A stretch of DNA of 64,000 nucleotides from Chitinophagales bacterium (GCA_046329555.1 JAXLUK010000005.1:188801-252800); one strand, 5' to 3'; positions 4,047 through 63,433 are shown, counted from the first letter of the stretch. The notes: a model not told the origin generated them from the sequence alone. Numbers and translations are program-made.

Positions 4047-4241
4047 ATGAAAAAATTCTTCGCAGCGTTGATGGTAGTAGCCGGATTGGCTTCTATGAAC
4101 TCTTGCAAAACTTGCGTGAACTGCCGTCCAGTTGGTGGTGGAACTGCACAAACTGTCTGCAAGTCAGACTTTAACAACAACCAAACTTTATACGATGCAG
4201 CCATCACGTCTTACCGTGCAAGTGGCTACAGCTGTTCCTAA
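4047..4241 (+). CDS. Small Cys-rich putative lipoprotein, paralog 1 of 3 (64 aa)
   Basis: I prefer the ATG at 4047 (MKKFFAALMVVAGLASMNSC) over the ORF-track start at 3969. Signal peptide, then CxxCxxC. Shares the motif CKSDFNNNQTLYDAA...GYSCS with the next two genes. Confidence 0.6.
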   Translation: MKKFFAALMVVAGLASMNSCKTCVNCRPVGGGTAQTVCKSDFNNNQTLYDAAITSYRASGYSCS

Positions 4242-41083: not shown

Positions 41084-42481
41084 TTACAGCTTCAAACTTA
41101 CACTTCCGCCGCTGGTCACCTCAAAATCTTTTTCCACCGAACTGTGAATAGCTTTTGCGCTGCGCGCGCGGTACACTATCTTGTACTTGCCCGGCTGCAG
41201 CCACCACTGCATGGTTTTTTTGTCGTTGCGCAGGCGCTCCAGCGCTTCTAAACCATGCTGGCCGTAATACAGCAGCGCGCCTTCCATTTCCTGCATGCAT
41301 TGCACCTGCAACAGGCCGGGAACCGGCACGACCAATTCGGTGTTTTTTCCCGGCGGAATAGTCAAAGCATGAAACTCAATCCGCGGCAAGGTAAGCAGCG
41401 AAACATCATACGTTCCGGCCAACAACGGTTCCGGACGGTTCATGGTCGATTTCAATAAAATAGTTCCGCTATCGGGCCGGTGAATCAACACAGGAATGTC
41501 TTCAGGAAGAAAATTTTTCGGCAACACCCCGCTGTACATCGGCAACAGCGTGCCACGTGCGGCATCGGCAACAAGGCGGTTGTGTTCATTTTTCTTCAAC
41601 ACAATATCGCGAATCACCAGCGGCGGCGTGGTGTGCACCGTAAGCTGGTACGTAAACAGGGGCGATAACGTCATCGTATCCGGCAGTCCATACGCATTCA
41701 AGGTGTGGAAGCACCGGTACTTCACCACGCCCGTACGGGCATCGCTGAACGTGAGCGGCACCGCGGTTTCCAGCGGTTTTCCAAATTCATTATTTAAATC
41801 CACCTGCACCGTAGTTTTAGCAATAGCTTCGTTCACGATGCGGTCGAGCTGCTCAGTAAATTCAGCCCCCGAATTTACATTCACCAAATCGCCTACGCAT
41901 TGAAAATTGGCTTCGGCGCGGGCGTTTAATTGCAAGCCAATCACAAATGGTTTGAGAATAATACCGCGCTGTTGTAACAATAAACTGGCAGCGCACACAT
42001 CGCCCTCGCAGGCTTCTTCACCATCCGTAATTAAAATCAAAATATTTCGCGATTCGTCGGCGCCAAAATCACCGGCTGCTTTTTCCAGCGCATAAGCAAT
42101 AGGCGTAATGCCTTTTGGTTTCAGCGTTTTCAGTTTCGATAAAAACCGCTCGGCATTATTTTTCCCAATCGGAATTTCCAGTCGCGTGTCCTTGCAATTG
42201 TGTTCCGATTCATCGTATAAATCGCCAAAGGCGCGCAAGCCTGTTACCACATTCGGAATCTTACAGATACTGTCGGAAATTTGCGCAATGGTATTGATGG
42301 CCGTTTCCCACTTGGTGGCGCCATCCCAGTTTTTCTTCATGCTGAACGACGCATCCAGCACGTACAAAATTTTGGTGGTTTGCGCGAAGGTGGAAGTGCT
42401 GAACAACAGCAACCACAGCAACCAATACCGGTAAGCGCGGCGGCCTGTTGCCGGTGAGAGATGGATTTTTTTCGCGCTCAT
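41084..42481 (-). CDS. Secreted von Willebrand factor A domain protein (paralog B)
   Basis: Signal peptide. MIDAS motif VLDASFSM...ILITDGEEAC. About 250-aa C-terminal beta-rich extension. Confidence 0.8.
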   Translation of the reverse strand: MSAKKIHLSPATGRRAYRYWLLWLLLFSTSTFAQTTKILYVLDASFSMKKNWDGATKWETAINTIAQISDSICKIPNVVTGLRAFGDLYDESEHNCKDTRLEIPIGKNNAERFLSKLKTLKPKGITPIAYALEKAAGDFGADESRNILILITDGEEACEGDVCAASLLLQQRGIILKPFVIGLQLNARAEANFQCVGDLVNVNSGAEFTEQLDRIVNEAIAKTTVQVDLNNEFGKPLETAVPLTFSDARTGVVKYRCFHTLNAYGLPDTMTLSPLFTYQLTVHTTPPLVIRDIVLKKNEHNRLVADAARGTLLPMYSGVLPKNFLPEDIPVLIHRPDSGTILLKSTMNRPEPLLAGTYDVSLLTLPRIEFHALTIPPGKNTELVVPVPGLLQVQCMQEMEGALLYYGQHGLEALERLRNDKKTMQWWLQPGKYKIVYRARSAKAIHSSVEKDFEVTSGGSVSLKL

Positions 42482-43824
42482 AAGTCAAGCACACTGGTTT
42501 TATTTTCTTCCATCACCACCGTGGTGGATTTTGATGATTCGGCATGTTGGGCGTTTAGCGGTTGGGTGAGCACCACATAAGTGCCCGGTTGCAGGCGGCA
42601 CGATATACCGGCTTGACCAACTTCAGCTCGGTATTCCAGCGTTTCGCCTGATGCGCCCTGATGAAGAATGGCCAATCGCGCTTTTTCGCGCGAGGTAATC
42701 AGCAGCGTGCCGAAGGCGGGCATCGTCCATTCGTTGGCCAGCGGTTGCGTGAAAAGGGTATCGGCAATAGGCGTGGTCAGCACCTGCACCCGAAGCGGCG
42801 AGGCGGCATACTGCTCGGTTTCGTTCCTACTTTGTGTTTTGATGATGTTCGATTGGCGCACCACTACGCGCGCATCGTTTTTTGTTCCCGGCAAGATGGG
42901 CGCATTCACGCGAACAGGAGTCAGAAAGGCGGGCAAGGCCAGTACGTTATTTTTTCCAGGGTCAATGGTAATGTCATTTTTTTGCAAGGCAGGAAATGTA
43001 TGCACGGTAAGCTGGTACGTTCCGGTAGGATTCATCCAAATGGTATCGCTCACCACGGGCGCGCGATGCGTCTGCACCAGATTATACAACGGCTGATGCG
43101 AGTAGGCATCGGCAAACGTCATCGGCACATTGGTGATGCTGTTGGTTTCTTGTCGGTCAACCAGATGCACCTGCACCGTGGTATTGTCGAGCGTTCGGCG
43201 CACCAGGGCGCCCACCGCCTGCTGTACTTCGTTGGCCGAATGCGTATTGATGAACGTGCCCACACATTGAAAGTGTGCGGTTAGTGCTTCGGGCACATCT
43301 ACGCCAATGATGAACGGTTTTAGTGCAATGCGTTTTTCGCTCAGGCGCTGCGCGGCCACACACGGATCGCCCTCGCAGTTTTCGTTGCCATCGGTAATCA
43401 GGATGATGGCGTTTAGCGCTGTGCTGTCGGCCAAAAAATCTTTGGCGCCTTCGGCAATGCTATAGGCAATGGGCGTCATGCCTTGCGGAACAAGCCGGGA
43501 GGTGGCGGCTTTAAAGGCTGGACCATTTTGTTTGCCGAAAGGGATAAGCAGTTTTGAGTCGGTACAGTTTTTCTGGTTTTTCGGGAATTGCGCGCCGAAC
43601 ACCCGCAAGGCGAATTGTACGCGGCCCGTGCGCTCGAAAGAATCGACCAGATGGTACAGCGTGTTTCGGGCCACTTCGAAGCGCGATTGGCCCTGCCAGG
43701 AGGCCGCCATGCTACCCGAAGCATCCAGGATGAAGAGGATATGTTGTTGTTGCGGATGGAACGGTTGCGCCGGAAGGGCAACACGCAACAGCAGGAACCA
43801 ACCAAGCAGCCAACGCATCTGCAT
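42478..43824 (-). CDS. Secreted von Willebrand factor A domain protein (paralog A)
   Basis: MIDAS motif ILDASGSM...ILITDGNENC. Same architecture as the downstream paralog. ATGA stop/start overlap at 42478-42481. Confidence 0.8.
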   Translation of the reverse strand: MQMRWLLGWFLLLRVALPAQPFHPQQQHILFILDASGSMAASWQGQSRFEVARNTLYHLVDSFERTGRVQFALRVFGAQFPKNQKNCTDSKLLIPFGKQNGPAFKAATSRLVPQGMTPIAYSIAEGAKDFLADSTALNAIILITDGNENCEGDPCVAAQRLSEKRIALKPFIIGVDVPEALTAHFQCVGTFINTHSANEVQQAVGALVRRTLDNTTVQVHLVDRQETNSITNVPMTFADAYSHQPLYNLVQTHRAPVVSDTIWMNPTGTYQLTVHTFPALQKNDITIDPGKNNVLALPAFLTPVRVNAPILPGTKNDARVVVRQSNIIKTQSRNETEQYAASPLRVQVLTTPIADTLFTQPLANEWTMPAFGTLLITSREKARLAILHQGASGETLEYRAEVGQAGISCRLQPGTYVVLTQPLNAQHAESSKSTTVVMEENKTSVLDL

Positions 43825-43865
43825 AATAACGAAGCTAAGGAATTGTAAATTGTAGTAAAGAGCAG

Positions 43866-44184
43866 ATCAGGATTATTTTGGCGTGCCCCCTCCACCCGCA
43901 AGGAAGTATGCGCCTGGTGCAAGGGCAACGCTAATGCGGGTTTCGGGGTCGCGCCCTCTGCTCCCAAGGTTTTTGGCCGCGCATTGTTTCTGCAAGAATT
44001 GCGGCGGCATCAAAATGAGCGTAAAAAGAAGCCGGCGTTTTTTTTTGGAGCCGGCACAGCTCATTTTCTTCTGGCCGGGTGAAGGCCAAAAACGCTTTCC
44101 GCGTCGGTCGCTCACGCTCGGCGCAAGGTGGGGAAGGGTAGTGCGGCCAGGCGAAGATGCGCGTTCCAATTCGCGCGTTGGCAC
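43866..44184. repeat. GC-rich intergenic mosaic repeat (island 4)
   Basis: Begins TTATTTTGGCGTGCCCCCTCC, the same terminus as element B at 38380. Contains CTCACGCTCGGCGCAA, also present in element B. Runs directly into the 214-bp array. Confidence 0.5.
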
Positions 44185-45380
44185 GTGATAAATGGATAAA
44201 AATCCCGAAGGGATGAAATGATTATGGGGAATAATGTCACCCCTTCGGGGTTCATGATTTCACGATGTGGTGTTGCTACAAATATGCCAACCCTTCGGGT
44301 TTGGTTGGGCGCAGGTGTGCTCCATCTGGTTCAGTGATAAACGAGAGATGGATAAAAATCCCGAAGGGATGAAATAGTTGTAGCTGCGGAAATGGTGCGG
44401 AATCCAATCCCGAAGGGATGATAGGATCAGGAAGATTTTCGGGAATAATGTCACCCCTTCGGGGTTTATTATTTCACGATGCGGTGTTGCTACAAATATG
44501 CCAACCCTTCGGGTTTAGTTGGGCGCGGATGCGCCTTATCTGGTTCAGTGATAAACGATATATGGATAAAAATCCCGAAGCGATGAAATTGTTGTAGCTG
44601 CGAAAAAGGTGCGGAATCCAATCCCGAAGGGATGATAGGATAAGGAAGATTTTCGGGAATAATGTCACCCCTTCGGGGGTCATGATTTCACGATGTGGTG
44701 TTGCTACAAGTATGCCAACCCTTCGGGTTTAGTTGGGCGCGGATGCGCCTTATCTGGTTCAGTGATAAACGATATATGGATAAAAATCCCGAAGCGATGA
44801 AATTGTTGTAGCTGCGAAAAAGGTGCGGAATCCAATCCCGAAGGGATGATAGGATAAGGAAGATTTTCGGGAATAATGTCACCCCTTCGGGGGTCATGAT
44901 TTCACGATGTGGTGTTGCTACAAGTATGCCAACCCTTCGGGTTTAGTTGGGCGCGGATGCGCCTTATCTGGTTCAGTGATAAACGATATATGGATAAAAA
45001 TCCCGAAGCGATGAAATTGTTGTAGCTGCGAAAAAGGTGCGGAATCCAATCCCGAAGGGATGATAGGATAAGGAAGATTTTCGGGAATAATGTCACCCCT
45101 TCGGGGGTCATGATTTCACGATGTGGTGTTGCTACAAGTATGCCAACCCTTTGGGTTTAGTTGGGCGCGGATGCGCCTTATCTGGTTCAGTGATAAACGA
45201 TATATGGATAAAAATCCCGAAGGGATGAAATAGTTGTAGATGTAGCAGATGGCGCAGATACCAATCCCGAAGGGATGATATGATGATTATGGGGAATAAT
45301 GTCACCCCTTCGGGGTTTATTATTTCACGATGTGGTGTTGCTACAAGTATGCCAACCCTTCGGGTTTGGTTGGGCGTAGG
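44185..45380. repeat. Tandem array of a 214-bp unit, about 5.6 copies
   Basis: The anchor AATGTCACCCCTTCGGGG occurs at 44233, 44447, 44661, 44875, 45089 and 45298 (spacings 214, 214, 214, 214, 209). Copies 3 and 4 are identical by eye and the outer copies are diverged. Each unit holds four CCCTTCGGG/CCCGAAGGG hairpins, two per orientation, plus GGCGCggatGCGCC. Confidence 0.9.
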
Positions 45381-45439
45381 CATGCTCTAAAACTGGCCCT
45401 TGCTTTGTTACTATCTCCTAAAGCAAAACTGTAGTGTGT

Positions 45440-45593
45440 GGCCAGCATTGGCCAAAGGATATTTTGATGAAGCGGCGACTATCGAAAAGAGCGTCGAGCG
45501 GCCGGGATGGTAGTGGAGCGAGCGTAGCGAGCTGTGCGGAACGAAGTGGAGCACCGCAGCGATAGCGGAGCCACGAACAGCCCGTAAGCCGCC
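45440..45593. repeat. GC-rich intergenic mosaic repeat (island 5)
   Basis: GGATGGTAGTGGAGCGAGCGTAGCGAG...CAGCGATAGCGGAGCCACGAACAGCCC. These are reverse-complement versions of the modules in island 1. Confidence 0.45.
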
Positions 45594-46259
45594 CTAATAA
45601 TTCAAAAATCGCATGAGGGCGTCGTAACGATCTTTCACGTCTTCGGTGTAGTTTACTTCGTTGTACACGCCGCTTACTACATAATCGTAACGCTCAAAGG
45701 CCGCCACAATGGGCGATAAATCCTGTAAATTAATTTTCAACGTCACCAGCGTCTTGCCCGAATGTTGGTTGGTTTTGGAATAGGCCGATAACACTTGTCC
45801 GTTGTTCTCCTCCACAATCCTGCACATTTCCGATAGCTGGTAATCTACCGGCGCTACTTCTACTTCAATCAGGCTGCCTTCCTGCATCACGCCGTTTAAA
45901 TCGGCAAAGGCCTTTAAGCAACTTTCAGCCGATATCATGCCGATGTACGCTTCGCTCTCATCGTGTAGCACGGGTACCACCTTCACACTGTAGGCTACGG
46001 CAGCGCGCATCACCTCTAACAGGTGTGCGCTGGCATGGGTGTACACGCGCTTGGGTGCTGTGAAAAAACTGCCGAGGGTGGCACTCATATCGGGCATGGA
46101 AAAAATATCTTCCATGGCAATGAGTCCGACAAACTTCTCGCCATCTACCAGGGGCATCTGGTTGGCCATATAATCATGCATCAACAACACGGCCTGCTCT
46201 CCGGTAGTTTGTACCGTAAGGGGCTTGATGACATCCGAAACCAAATCGCGCGCGAACAT
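45594..46259 (-). CDS. CBS-domain pair protein with C-terminal ACT-like domain
   Basis: Two CBS-like motifs (VDGEKFVGLIAMEDI and VVPVLHDESEAYIGMIS). 221 aa. Confidence 0.7.
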   Translation of the reverse strand: MFARDLVSDVIKPLTVQTTGEQAVLLMHDYMANQMPLVDGEKFVGLIAMEDIFSMPDMSATLGSFFTAPKRVYTHASAHLLEVMRAAVAYSVKVVPVLHDESEAYIGMISAESCLKAFADLNGVMQEGSLIEVEVAPVDYQLSEMCRIVEENNGQVLSAYSKTNQHSGKTLVTLKINLQDLSPIVAAFERYDYVVSGVYNEVNYTEDVKDRYDALMRFLNY

Positions 46260-47137: not shown

Positions 47138-47325
47138 TTGTTTACACCTAGAGGGGGTTTGCACGCAAAAGGGGTTTACAAGCGAAGGGGATACACGCAA
47201 AGGACGCAAAGATTATACACGCAAAGAACGCAAAGATTTACGCAAAGACCGCAAAGGGGTTTACACGCAAAGACCGCAGAGGTTTACACGCAAAGAACGC
47301 AAAGATTTACGCAAAGGGCGCTGAG
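47138..47325. repeat. Degenerate tandem array of the heptamer CGCAAAG (CTTTGCG on the gene strand)
   Basis: Eleven exact CGCAAAG plus about three variants within 190 bp. The higher-order unit TACACGCAAAGAACGCAAAGATTTACGCAAAG occurs twice, 70 bp apart. Lies between the ABC-F stop and the hydrolase start. Confidence 0.8.
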
Positions 47326-47359
47326 GGGATGGAAGTGGGGGGCGGGTCGATATTTTGTT

Positions 47360-60367: not shown

Positions 60368-63433
<3,066 letters not shown>

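Follow-up and report, generated by a model that had tools for sequence, protein, structure and literature searches.

A 1.2-kb tandem array of four-hairpin elements in a Chitinophagales bacterium is probably a BIME-like cluster related to IS200-like Y1 transposase elements

Genomic setting and extent of the array

The window analysed in this study is a stretch of 64,000 nucleotides from a Chitinophagales bacterium (GCA_046329555.1, JAXLUK010000005.1:188801-252800), and positions are counted from its first letter. An intergenic region (43825-45593), flanked by a VWA (von Willebrand-A) gene and a CBS-domain gene, houses a tandem array of 1.2 kb with a period of 214 bp. The limits of the array (~44185, beginning with GTGATAAA, and ~45396, ending in ..CTGG) were set by comparing its terminal copies with the internal junctions and the flanks. 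An earlier inspection of the DNA (hereafter the sequence-only reading) had described about 5.6 copies between 44185 and 45380; its left edge and period were retained, whereas the right edge was moved to ~45396 and six elements were recognised, the first of them lacking one hairpin. The features are listed below; E values refer to the element profile described further down, '<' and '>' denote the two hairpin orientations, and the array, its elements and its linkers carry no strand assignment.

42478-43824, minus strand: VWA (von Willebrand-A) gene, neighbour of the array
44185-45396: whole array, six head-to-tail four-hairpin elements with linkers, between the CBS-domain and VWA genes
44195-44303: element 1, incomplete, three hairpins (one '<', two '>'); nhmmer, model 46-153, E 4e-21
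44304-44355: linker 1, ~52 nt, small hairpin of the GGCGC..GCGCC type in a variant form (copy comparison)
44356-44517: element 2, complete A-B-C-D ('< < > >'); nhmmer, model 2-153, E 1e-27
44358-44384, plus strand: outer module example, hairpin A and tail, ATCCCGAAGGGAT-GAAATAGTTGTAG (family consensus AAyCCCGAAGGGrTGnnATGATTRTAG)
44407-44425, plus strand: inner module example, hairpin B, ATCCCGAAGGGAT-GATAGG
44447-44465, minus strand: inner module example, hairpin C, plus-strand reading ATGTCA-CCCCTTCGGGG-T
44489-44515, minus strand: outer module example, hairpin D and tail, plus-strand reading CTACAAATATGCCA-ACCCTTCGGGT-T (consensus CTAYAATCATnnCA-hairpin-TT)
44518-44569: linker 2, GGCGC-GGAT-GCGCC and junction CTGG-TTCA-GTGATAAA (copy comparison)
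44570-44731: element 3, complete, hairpin A with a stem-breaking G>C (CCCGAAGCG); nhmmer, E 2e-24
44732-44783: linker 3, same as linker 2 (copy comparison)
44784-44945: element 4, complete, identical to element 3, same hairpin-A defect (profile and copy comparison)
44946-44997: linker 4, same as linker 2 (copy comparison)
44998-45158: element 5, complete, same hairpin-A defect, hairpin D mutated (CCCTTTGGG); nhmmer, E 2e-23
45159-45211: linker 5, same as linker 2 (copy comparison)
45212-45368: element 6, complete, four intact hairpins; nhmmer, E 2e-28
45594-46259, minus strand: CBS-domain gene, neighbour of the array

The period was recovered by Tandem Repeats Finder (44220-45376, period 214, 5.4 copies, 94% matches) and by a repeat search of the array, which returned a start-to-start distance of 214 four times. 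Anchoring on hairpin C (44241, 44455, 44669, 44883, 45097 and 45306) gave the same intervals as reported before (214, 214, 214, 214 and 209 bp). Exact CCCTTCGGG or CCCGAAGGG sites occur 19 times in the 64-kb window, and all 19 lie in the array (chance expectation 0.5; 19 reached in 0/100 shuffles). With up to one mismatch allowed, 23 hairpin modules were found in the array, 11 in one orientation and 12 in the other, all 23 being intergenic. Neither core sites nor the profile search disclosed further unit copies in the window beyond the array.

There was no transposase gene near the array, no Y1 gene in the 64-kb window when it was searched with the Y1 open reading frame (ORF) of the family, and no tRNA or tmRNA. 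The earlier rejection of any credible ORF in the array was upheld. Rfam yielded no match in the window at the gathering score, with only sub-threshold chance matches in the region (E ≥ 0.18), and no match at the elements of 18 related loci.

Anatomy of the unit and comparison of the copies

Each unit consists of an element of ~160 bp with four short hairpins, two per orientation ('< < > >'), and a ~52-nt linker with a small GGCGC..GCGCC hairpin, which connects hairpin D to the next hairpin A. On the plus strand, CCCGAAGGG is the reading of hairpins A and B and CCCTTCGGG that of C and D; A and D form a 28-nt inverted repeat, and B is likewise an inverted repeat of C. Within the unit the hairpins are spaced by ~50, 40 and 50 nt, and the six repeats follow one another at 214 bp. 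The module comprises ~28 nt with a 13-nt hairpin (5-bp stem, 3-nt loop) and asymmetric flanks (AA on one side, TG..AT on the other), its consensus on the GAA-loop strand being AA-y-CCC-GAA-GGG-r-TG-nn-AT. Outer modules add GATTRTAG, in which RTAG (ATAG or GTAG) is conserved ~10 nt from the stem foot on the inner side; inner modules lack RTAG.

As the sequence-only reading had stated, copies 3 and 4 are identical (214/214), and copy 2 departs from copy 3 only near its start, at 5 positions, none of them past nt 63. Mosaic variation marks the outer copies: GGGGTTTATTATT is common to copies 2 and 6 and GAAGGGATGAAATAGTTG to copies 1 and 5, also as described before. The GGCGC-GGAT-GCGCC hairpin noted for its changes in the outer copies was located in the linker. 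In element 1, ~58 nt between hairpins A and B are absent, leaving it one hairpin short, and three adjacent units carry one shared stem-breaking G>C in hairpin A.

A CRISPR array was rejected here as it had been before, since the stretches between the hairpins recur in successive units and hairpin orientation alternates. Integron attC sites were rejected because GTTRRRY boxes are absent, and outward-facing TATAAT promoters because TATAAT is not conserved in the window.

Conservation and folding of the hairpins

Conservation of the stems was assessed by anchoring on sequence outside or inside the hairpin. Anchoring on the 7-nt tail presupposes no stem; a perfect 5-bp stem with a 3-nt loop was found at one fixed offset in 232/542 tail-anchored sites, compared with 1/542 after shuffling, and 13 different stems were present among these sites (including ATCCC, ACCCC, AGCCC, ACTCC and AGCCT). 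With the 9-nt core as the anchor (n=1263), Watson-Crick pairing at the fourth position, the next pair outward, reached 86.9%, against 36.1% expected from base frequencies, with CG, TA, GC and AT all occurring. A pair count for the local hairpins on alignment A3 was circular, because the members of A3 had been chosen for perfect stems; it was not used, and the tail- and core-anchored counts served as its unbiased versions.

The hairpins had been described as C(UUCG)G tetraloops. This assignment was abandoned: the conserved register is A-y-CCC/TTC/GGG-r-T, a 5-bp stem closed by a triloop, and the covarying pairs are compatible only with this symmetric register. The single-strand fold of minimum energy is a long rod in which A pairs with D and B with C (z = -4.1 for DNA and -5.7 for RNA relative to shuffles). 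As a conserved structure the rod was rejected, since it has no comparative support: in 42 elements, 86.7% of the arm-to-arm positions were paired compared with 87.0% in shuffles, with no surplus of compensatory changes.

It is the hairpins that evolution conserves, through compensatory stem changes. Such changes also disfavour the protein-binding duplex array that had been offered as an option, because recognition of duplex DNA by a dimeric protein would not require them. Small stems kept on both strands in a two-fold symmetric layout point to DNA hairpins rather than to RNA or a duplex protein site.

Distribution of the element

One genome per species was scanned for three hairpin cores at the observed spacings, which gave at least 120 loci. 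An nhmmer profile was built from 42 units of other genomes and contained no sequence from the window. Applied to the window, it returned six matches, all in the array (E ~1e-21 to 1e-28). It also matched 104/120 genome loci (among the matches listed) and 74/120 metagenome loci, all of which had first been found by the hairpin-only pattern. Pattern matches in Planctomycetota, Verrucomicrobiota, Myxococcota, Fischerella and the VFQN01 contigs proved to be unrelated GC-rich hairpin repeats and are excluded by the profile.

The carriers among the matches listed belong to the Bacteroidota (Saprospiraceae, Chitinophagaceae, Cytophagales, Flavobacteriales), the Chloroflexota (Anaerolineae) and a few other groups. 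Most loci among the listed genome matches hold a single '< < > >' unit, and gene-less A-B-C-D units are scattered in Bacteroidota and Chloroflexota genomes, mostly between genes. Anaerolineae MAGs contain several unit copies each, and in one Saprospirales MAG about a dozen contigs end in the unit, the flanks differing from one to the next. Tandem four-hairpin arrays were also found in other assemblies (L168, L173, L208; periods 168, 187 and ~256 nt), as were series of as many as eight 50-nt modules that all point the same way (L176, L203); loci such as L099, L176 and L203 differ in how many internal modules they contain. For the module-plus-spacer arrays of L203 and L176 a CRISPR-like reading was rejected, because their 'spacers' repeat.

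A 28-nt pattern specific to the window had no match in the metagenome collection, so no second copy of this exact variant was found there. The viral collection held one element only and gave no link to phages. A full-text literature search for CCCTTCGGG and CCCGAAGGG, both 9-mers, yielded nothing but primers and sequences without relation to the element.

An interpretation of the unit as a MITE was adopted at first, because copies in Anaerolineae, Saprospirales and Chitinophagaceae carry terminal inverted repeats. Some copies are indeed nested in host-specific MITEs with such repeats. Unrelated cargo is framed by the same repeats at L104, L106 and L031, however, and many elements lack them altogether, so the unit was no longer taken for an ordinary MITE. 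About half of 47 elements tested showed no inverted repeat outside the outer hairpins, and no conserved flank, target motif or target duplication was present there. Terminal inverted repeats at the very ends together with a target-site duplication, the hallmarks of a MITE of a DDE transposon, were thus not found.

Association with a Y1 transposase gene

The gene was discovered by tblastn with an approximate IS608 TnpA query, which gave weak matches beside larger module clusters that were then confirmed by Pfam. An E. coli RAYT query, likewise approximate, gave no tblastn match. Among the matches listed, a Y1 ORF was present in 27/241 loci, roughly 20-250 nt from the modules, all 241 having been ascertained through the hairpin motif. 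The ORFs encode ~154 amino acids, share 57-78% identity (39% in one case) and match PF01797 (Y1_Tnp) with E values of 1e-22 to 1e-25.

At the clearest loci, the '<' modules precede the start codon by about 90 and 40 nt (-90 and -40), and '>' modules begin at or just past the stop codon. The Y1 gene thus occupies exactly the interval from hairpin B to hairpin C, and the canonical full element is A-B-gene-C-D, with the four-hairpin unit as its gene-less version. The A-B-gene-C-D unit measures ~700 bp, and some loci have a Shine-Dalgarno-like GGAGG between hairpin B and the ATG. At several other loci the whole four-hairpin unit lies upstream of the gene, or modules are found on one side only.

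For a reverse test, five homologues were taken from a protein search without prior inspection of their flanks. Adjoining modules were found in 5/5 cases (Emticicia, Elizabethkingia, Pedobacter, Melioribacter and a Chitinophagaceae MAG). In Emticicia they lie upstream of the gene only, in Elizabethkingia their orientation is opposite to the canonical layout, and Melioribacter has ~28 modules upstream (~19 '>' and 9 '<'). One homologue is located beside the same neighbour genes in three separate assemblies.

Eight residues are invariant in 20 Y1 sequences of 150-155 amino acids (H55, H57, W95, Q96, Y115, Q119, H122 and H123), which correspond to the HuH histidines (DH-V/I-H), the WQ motif and Y..NQ..HH. 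The NCBI IS200/IS605 model scored 54-69 bits (cut-off 55), whereas the NCBI RAYT model (NF047646) scored 25-31 bits, below its cut-off of 80. The nearest solved structures are the TnpA proteins of ISDra2 and IS608, and the solved E. coli RAYT gave no match at E ≤ 0.01. By its sequence, the Y1 protein belongs to class 1 (IS200-like), not class 2.

Within class 1, the protein agrees in motifs, length and taxa with subclass 1.2, in a comparison that covered the motifs (Quentin et al. 2018, PMC6006769). This subclass was defined by ~148 amino acids, DH[IV]H, WQ, Y---Q--HH, a specific C-terminal domain and its occurrence in Bacteroidetes. It was described as close to IS200 transposases but listed with 'no' REP and generally without IS200 end structures (PMC6006769). 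A gene of the same type was also found in Anaerolineae MAGs (L066, L079). In the literature covered, which was incomplete, no later paper tying subclass 1.2 to a repeat was found, and the pairing of these hairpins with this subclass may be unreported.

Origin of the array and alternative explanations

Because the same hairpins bracket an IS200-like Y1 gene in many Bacteroidota and Chloroflexota genomes, the array is interpreted as a REP/BIME-type cluster rather than an RNA gene or CRISPR. It is probably a BIME-like cluster of six tandem gene-less four-hairpin elements, whose hairpins represent the end structures of a small IS200-like Y1 (HUH) transposase element. Of the options left by the sequence-only reading, the BIME/REP-like composite is the one borne out, by a widespread family of inverted-pair modules that brackets a Y1 (IS200-like) gene in other genomes. 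Co-occurrence with a RAYT/IS200-like gene, a check proposed at the time that proved decisive, was found in other genomes and not within the window.

By analogy with IS608 and ISDra2 TnpA and with E. coli TnpA-REP, the Y1 enzyme would recognise the modules as single-stranded DNA hairpins, for instance on the lagging-strand template. It might then cut and rejoin the DNA beside them and in this way move or copy gene-less units in trans. The array may have grown from a single unit with ~52 nt of flank through unequal recombination or replication slippage, after which gene conversion would have homogenised the middle copies. The identity of copies 3 and 4, the G>C shared by three adjacent units and the mosaic outer copies fit such growth with gene conversion rather than six separate insertions, in keeping with the concerted evolution proposed earlier for the homogenised central copies. 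Dimers of classical REPs are likewise reiterated in tandem along with pieces of flanking DNA (Di Nocera 2013, PMC3733652). Transcripts may be influenced to some degree, in view of the convergent-gene excess and the terminator-like enrichment described below; partial termination at the two neighbour genes or protection of RNA 3' ends, if any, is regarded as a side effect.

Several observations count against this interpretation. The 64-kb window lacks the Y1 gene and holds only this one cluster. Subclass 1.2 was reported as REP-less and without typical IS200 ends (PMC6006769), and RTAG is placed ~10 nt from the stem on its inner side, unlike the stem-adjacent GTAG of classical REPs. The protein failed the RAYT model, the loci were ascertained via the motif, and the reverse test comprised five homologues.

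On a broader scale, the four-hairpin module and the 'orphan' Y1 subclass 1.2 might together constitute a previously unrecognised REP/RAYT-type system of the Bacteroidota and Chloroflexota (Anaerolineae), a proposal about as likely to be right as wrong. Such a system would have a recognition module of ~28 nt that is nearly constant across phyla, would readily nest in other mobile elements and would form arrays of up to dozens of modules, the window array being one such amplification.

A rather doubtful alternative sees the units as MITE/PATE-type derivatives of an IS200-like insertion sequence that transposes actively, instead of as partners of a RAYT-like gene that is domesticated and present in single copy; the array would then have arisen from insertions beside existing copies at a preferred target. 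The Y1 protein passes the IS200/IS605 model (54-69 bits, cut-off 55) and fails the RAYT model, its closest solved structures are ISDra2 and IS608 TnpA, A-B-gene-C-D has with ~700 bp the size of IS200, and the arrays are arranged head-to-tail. However, subclass 1.2 occurs at a mean of 1.7 copies per genome, with 36% identity among the copies within a genome, and has no IS properties (PMC6006769), one homologue keeps the same neighbour genes in three assemblies, and no target motif is conserved beyond the outer hairpins. In addition, the stem-breaking mutation common to three adjacent units points to local duplication and not to repeated insertion.

That the copy number of the array, as distinct from its existence, is an assembly artefact appears unlikely. 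The identity of copies 3 and 4 extends over 214 bp and further, too far for short reads to count the copies. No Logan short-read contig spans the array: one, in an assembly of the same organism (SRR26348422), reproduces the left flank and the first ~50 nt and then ends, a second left-side contig ends ~145 nt before the array, and two right-side contigs end in another repeat at ~45514, ~120 nt past the right edge. As the contig breaks ~50 nt into the array, the copy number is that of the MAG contig alone. On the other hand, the left junction and the first ~50 nt were independently reproduced, similar arrays exist in other assemblies, and the outer copies have diverged enough for the ends to be anchored.

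It is quite improbable that a host role in duplex DNA or transcription (as a bidirectional terminator, an insulator or a binding array for nucleoid proteins) is the main reason why the element is retained, with the transposase link being secondary. Classical REP/BIME sequences do bind IHF, gyrase and Pol I and stabilise mRNA (PMC2817692, PMC6006769). In addition, 25 elements lie between convergent and 11 between divergent genes, and eight weak terminator-like sites were predicted in the array versus 2.4 expected. However, the T-runs after the hairpins are short, and the bias towards 3' ends would equally be expected from selection against insertions into promoters. Furthermore, 3/6 A hairpins in the array are broken in their stems, contrary to what strong selection on every single hairpin would lead one to expect.

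Finally, it is highly improbable that the array encodes several structured small RNAs in a row, or a single long structured transcript, with the hairpins acting as RNA: single-strand folds are more stable than shuffles (z = -5.7 RNA, -4.1 DNA), the stems covary and UUCG-type loops are common in RNA, but there is no Rfam family here or at the 18 related loci, no promoter-like site was found in the array versus 3 expected by chance, the two-fold symmetry places equivalent hairpins on both strands, the covariation follows the 3-nt loop register and not cUUCGg, no covariation is seen in the long-range pairing of which the RNA fold mostly consists, and a transposase gene is bracketed by the modules. 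The small-RNA option of the sequence-only reading was given up on these grounds.

Significance

REP/RAYT systems are the classic example of a domesticated transposase that is retained along with its miniature partners, and work on them has concentrated almost entirely on Proteobacteria. If the proposed link is true, a second class of Y1 proteins, near the true IS200 transposases and reported as REP-less, would have hairpin partners in two other large phyla. It would then offer a tractable system for the reading of DNA hairpins by HUH enzymes and for the transition from a transposase to a gene kept by its host. The recognition module is short and strongly conserved and is thus directly testable with oligonucleotides. 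From a practical point of view, the elements break short-read assemblies of environmental Bacteroidota and Anaerolineae, and a profile of the element would prevent it from being flagged repeatedly as a candidate RNA or CRISPR-like array.

Comparison with known systems

The closest resemblance is to the REP/BIME sequences and TnpA-REP (RAYT) proteins, or 'REPtrons', of E. coli and other Proteobacteria (Nunvar 2010, PMC2817692; Ton-Hoang 2012, PMC3333891), which likewise comprise short extragenic palindromes. The asymmetric tag of REPs, a conserved tetranucleotide (GTAG or CGTC) at one end of the palindrome, may have a counterpart in the RTAG of the outer modules. REPs are found as singles, as inverted pairs and as tandem clusters that take in parts of the flanking DNA (Di Nocera 2013, PMC3733652). 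Two of the features by which such sequences are recognised were found here as well: short (20-40 nt) extragenic imperfect palindromes that form stem-loops, and regularly spaced inverted clusters, sometimes in tandem. REPs are also dispersed in many copies per genome; the unit was seen in several copies per Anaerolineae MAG, about a dozen times in the Saprospirales MAG and as one cluster in the window. As in a REPtron, inverted copies of the palindromes stand on both sides of a small HUH-Y1 gene, in this case in other genomes (27 hairpin-selected loci among the matches listed; 5/5 protein-selected) and not in the window. Unlike in classical REPs, the stem comprises only 5 bp with a 3-nt loop, RTAG lies ~10 nt off the stem instead of adjacent to it, and the usual unit is a double doublet of four hairpins. 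The module is nearly constant across two phyla, whereas REPs are species-specific, and the Y1 protein is of class 1 (IS200-like), not class 2, and fails the NCBI RAYT model.

The REPINs of Pseudomonas (Bertels and Rainey 2011, PMC3116915) are similarly gene-less inverted REPs that fold into long hairpins and are thought to be moved in trans by a Y1 enzyme. They possess one hairpin per arm compared with two here, and the arm-to-arm pairing of the present units shows no covariation beyond the shared consensus.

IS200/IS605 elements (IS608, ISDra2) and their palindrome-associated miniature derivatives include the closest protein relatives with solved structures, and the gene with its ends spans ~700 bp. 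They share subterminal hairpins, which are recognised there in single-stranded DNA and would, by analogy, be recognised in the same way here. At IS608-type ends the two hairpins differ from each other, share one strand and have the cleavage sites to their outside; the ends described here consist of a single module in inverted copies, at least two on each side, and the tag lies to the inside. IS200/IS605 elements typically have several near-identical gene copies per genome; for subclass 1.2 a low copy number and 36% identity are reported (PMC6006769).

BOX (boxA-boxB(n)-boxC), Correia and ERIC sequences are also small, hairpin-capable intergenic composite repeats with a variable number of internal modules, but no Y1 gene is tied to them and each occurs in a narrow range of taxa. 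Terminal inverted repeats and target duplications, which Correia and ERIC elements possess, are both absent from the core unit.

Among Y1 proteins, the likeness is to TnpA-Y1 subclass 1.2 (~148-154 amino acids, DH[IV]H, WQ, Y---Q--HH, specific C-terminal tail, Bacteroidetes; Quentin et al. 2018, PMC6006769). In contrast to the published subclass, which was listed as REP-less, the genes found here are flanked by hairpin modules and occur in Anaerolineae as well. The feature is of a known kind, a REP-type cluster; its probable partner is an IS200-like class-1 Y1 that had been listed as REP-less, a pairing that may be unreported, and its module is conserved across two phyla.

Dispersal of the four-hairpin unit and its nesting in MITEs

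In the Saprospirales MAG JANNMS01, the four-hairpin unit is a dispersed high-copy repeat that breaks the assembly. It was found with its own ends, CAGGTCAAACGCATTAAAATCC, at approximately 12 contig ends, with differing flanks. One of the loci concerned, L115, is perfectly palindromic, possibly because of a chimeric assembly.

The unit also occurs within other small elements. In Anaerolineae it frequently lies within a MITE that is flanked by TA and has TAACTCACCTTACGCAG as its terminal inverted repeats; the MITE that surrounds it in Chitinophagaceae has CCACAAGTGTTCGGAAGATT instead. Since quite different cargo is also enclosed by the terminal repeats of these MITEs, either the four-hairpin unit invaded other mobile elements or those elements captured the unit. 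In the element at L031, the loop of hairpin D is split by a 23-nt palindromic insert, CTGCCTTTGCCGGCAGGCAGGCA (positions 4080-4110), which is present again close by; this insert is a second, still smaller repeat nested in the four-hairpin element.

Loci with dispersed or MITE-associated units
Unit in JANNMS01: L005, L016, L018, L025, L026, L030, L032, L037, L047, L090, L109, L115
MITE nesting or terminal repeats: L104:1422-1530, L106:101-210, L031:4168-4730
For comparison with the MITE loci: L009, L055, L066, L069, L089

The sole match for the four-hairpin unit in the viral collection was one complete unit (positions 2844-2996) in L125, a 42-kb IMG/VR contig classed as viral.

Neighbourhood of a Y1 transposase gene

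The gene of the Y1 protein P0068, an IS200-like transposase, has the same neighbours in three separate assemblies (L251, L252 and L253): one gene encodes an Obg GTPase and the other a product of ~644-693 aa. Between hairpins C and D, an indel of ~25 nt sets L251 apart from L252 and L253. This shared context hints that the P0068 gene is stably inherited rather than jumping.

Flanks of the array and other repeats

The following segments were observed beside the array and elsewhere in the window:
43860-44180, GC-rich segment of 320 nt between the start of the VWA gene and the array
45480-45590, GC-rich stretch GGAGCGAGCGTAGCGAGCTGTGCGGAACGAAGTGGAGCACCGCAGCGATAGCGGAGCC... directly downstream of the CBS gene
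47185-47330, separate tandem repeat of ~5 copies of the 23-nt unit TACACGCAAAGAACGCAAAGATT
60368-63433, ORF of 1021 aa

In the 320-nt segment, GCCGGC-N13-GCCGGC with a T-run after it on the minus strand resembles a terminator. The VWA gene may therefore be transcribed from a promoter of its own, located downstream of this putative terminator. Two independent short-read contigs both stop at ~45514 within the stretch next to the CBS gene, which is therefore probably another dispersed repeat. The 23-nt tandem repeat is intergenic, lying between a hydrolase gene and an ABC-F gene. The ORF contains ~2 kb of GGT-GCn-ACn repeats with a 9-nt period (Gly-X-Y, collagen-like), longer nested periods of 87, 99, 189 and 288 nt, and a GC content of up to 61%.

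Metagenomic VFQN01 contigs (L189, L205, L169 and L128) carry dozens of GC-rich hairpins of the GGGGC/GCCCC type per 10 kb, with GAAG loops, interleaved with TATATA motifs. These hairpins make up a separate palindromic repeat family of very high density, with no relation to the four-hairpin unit.
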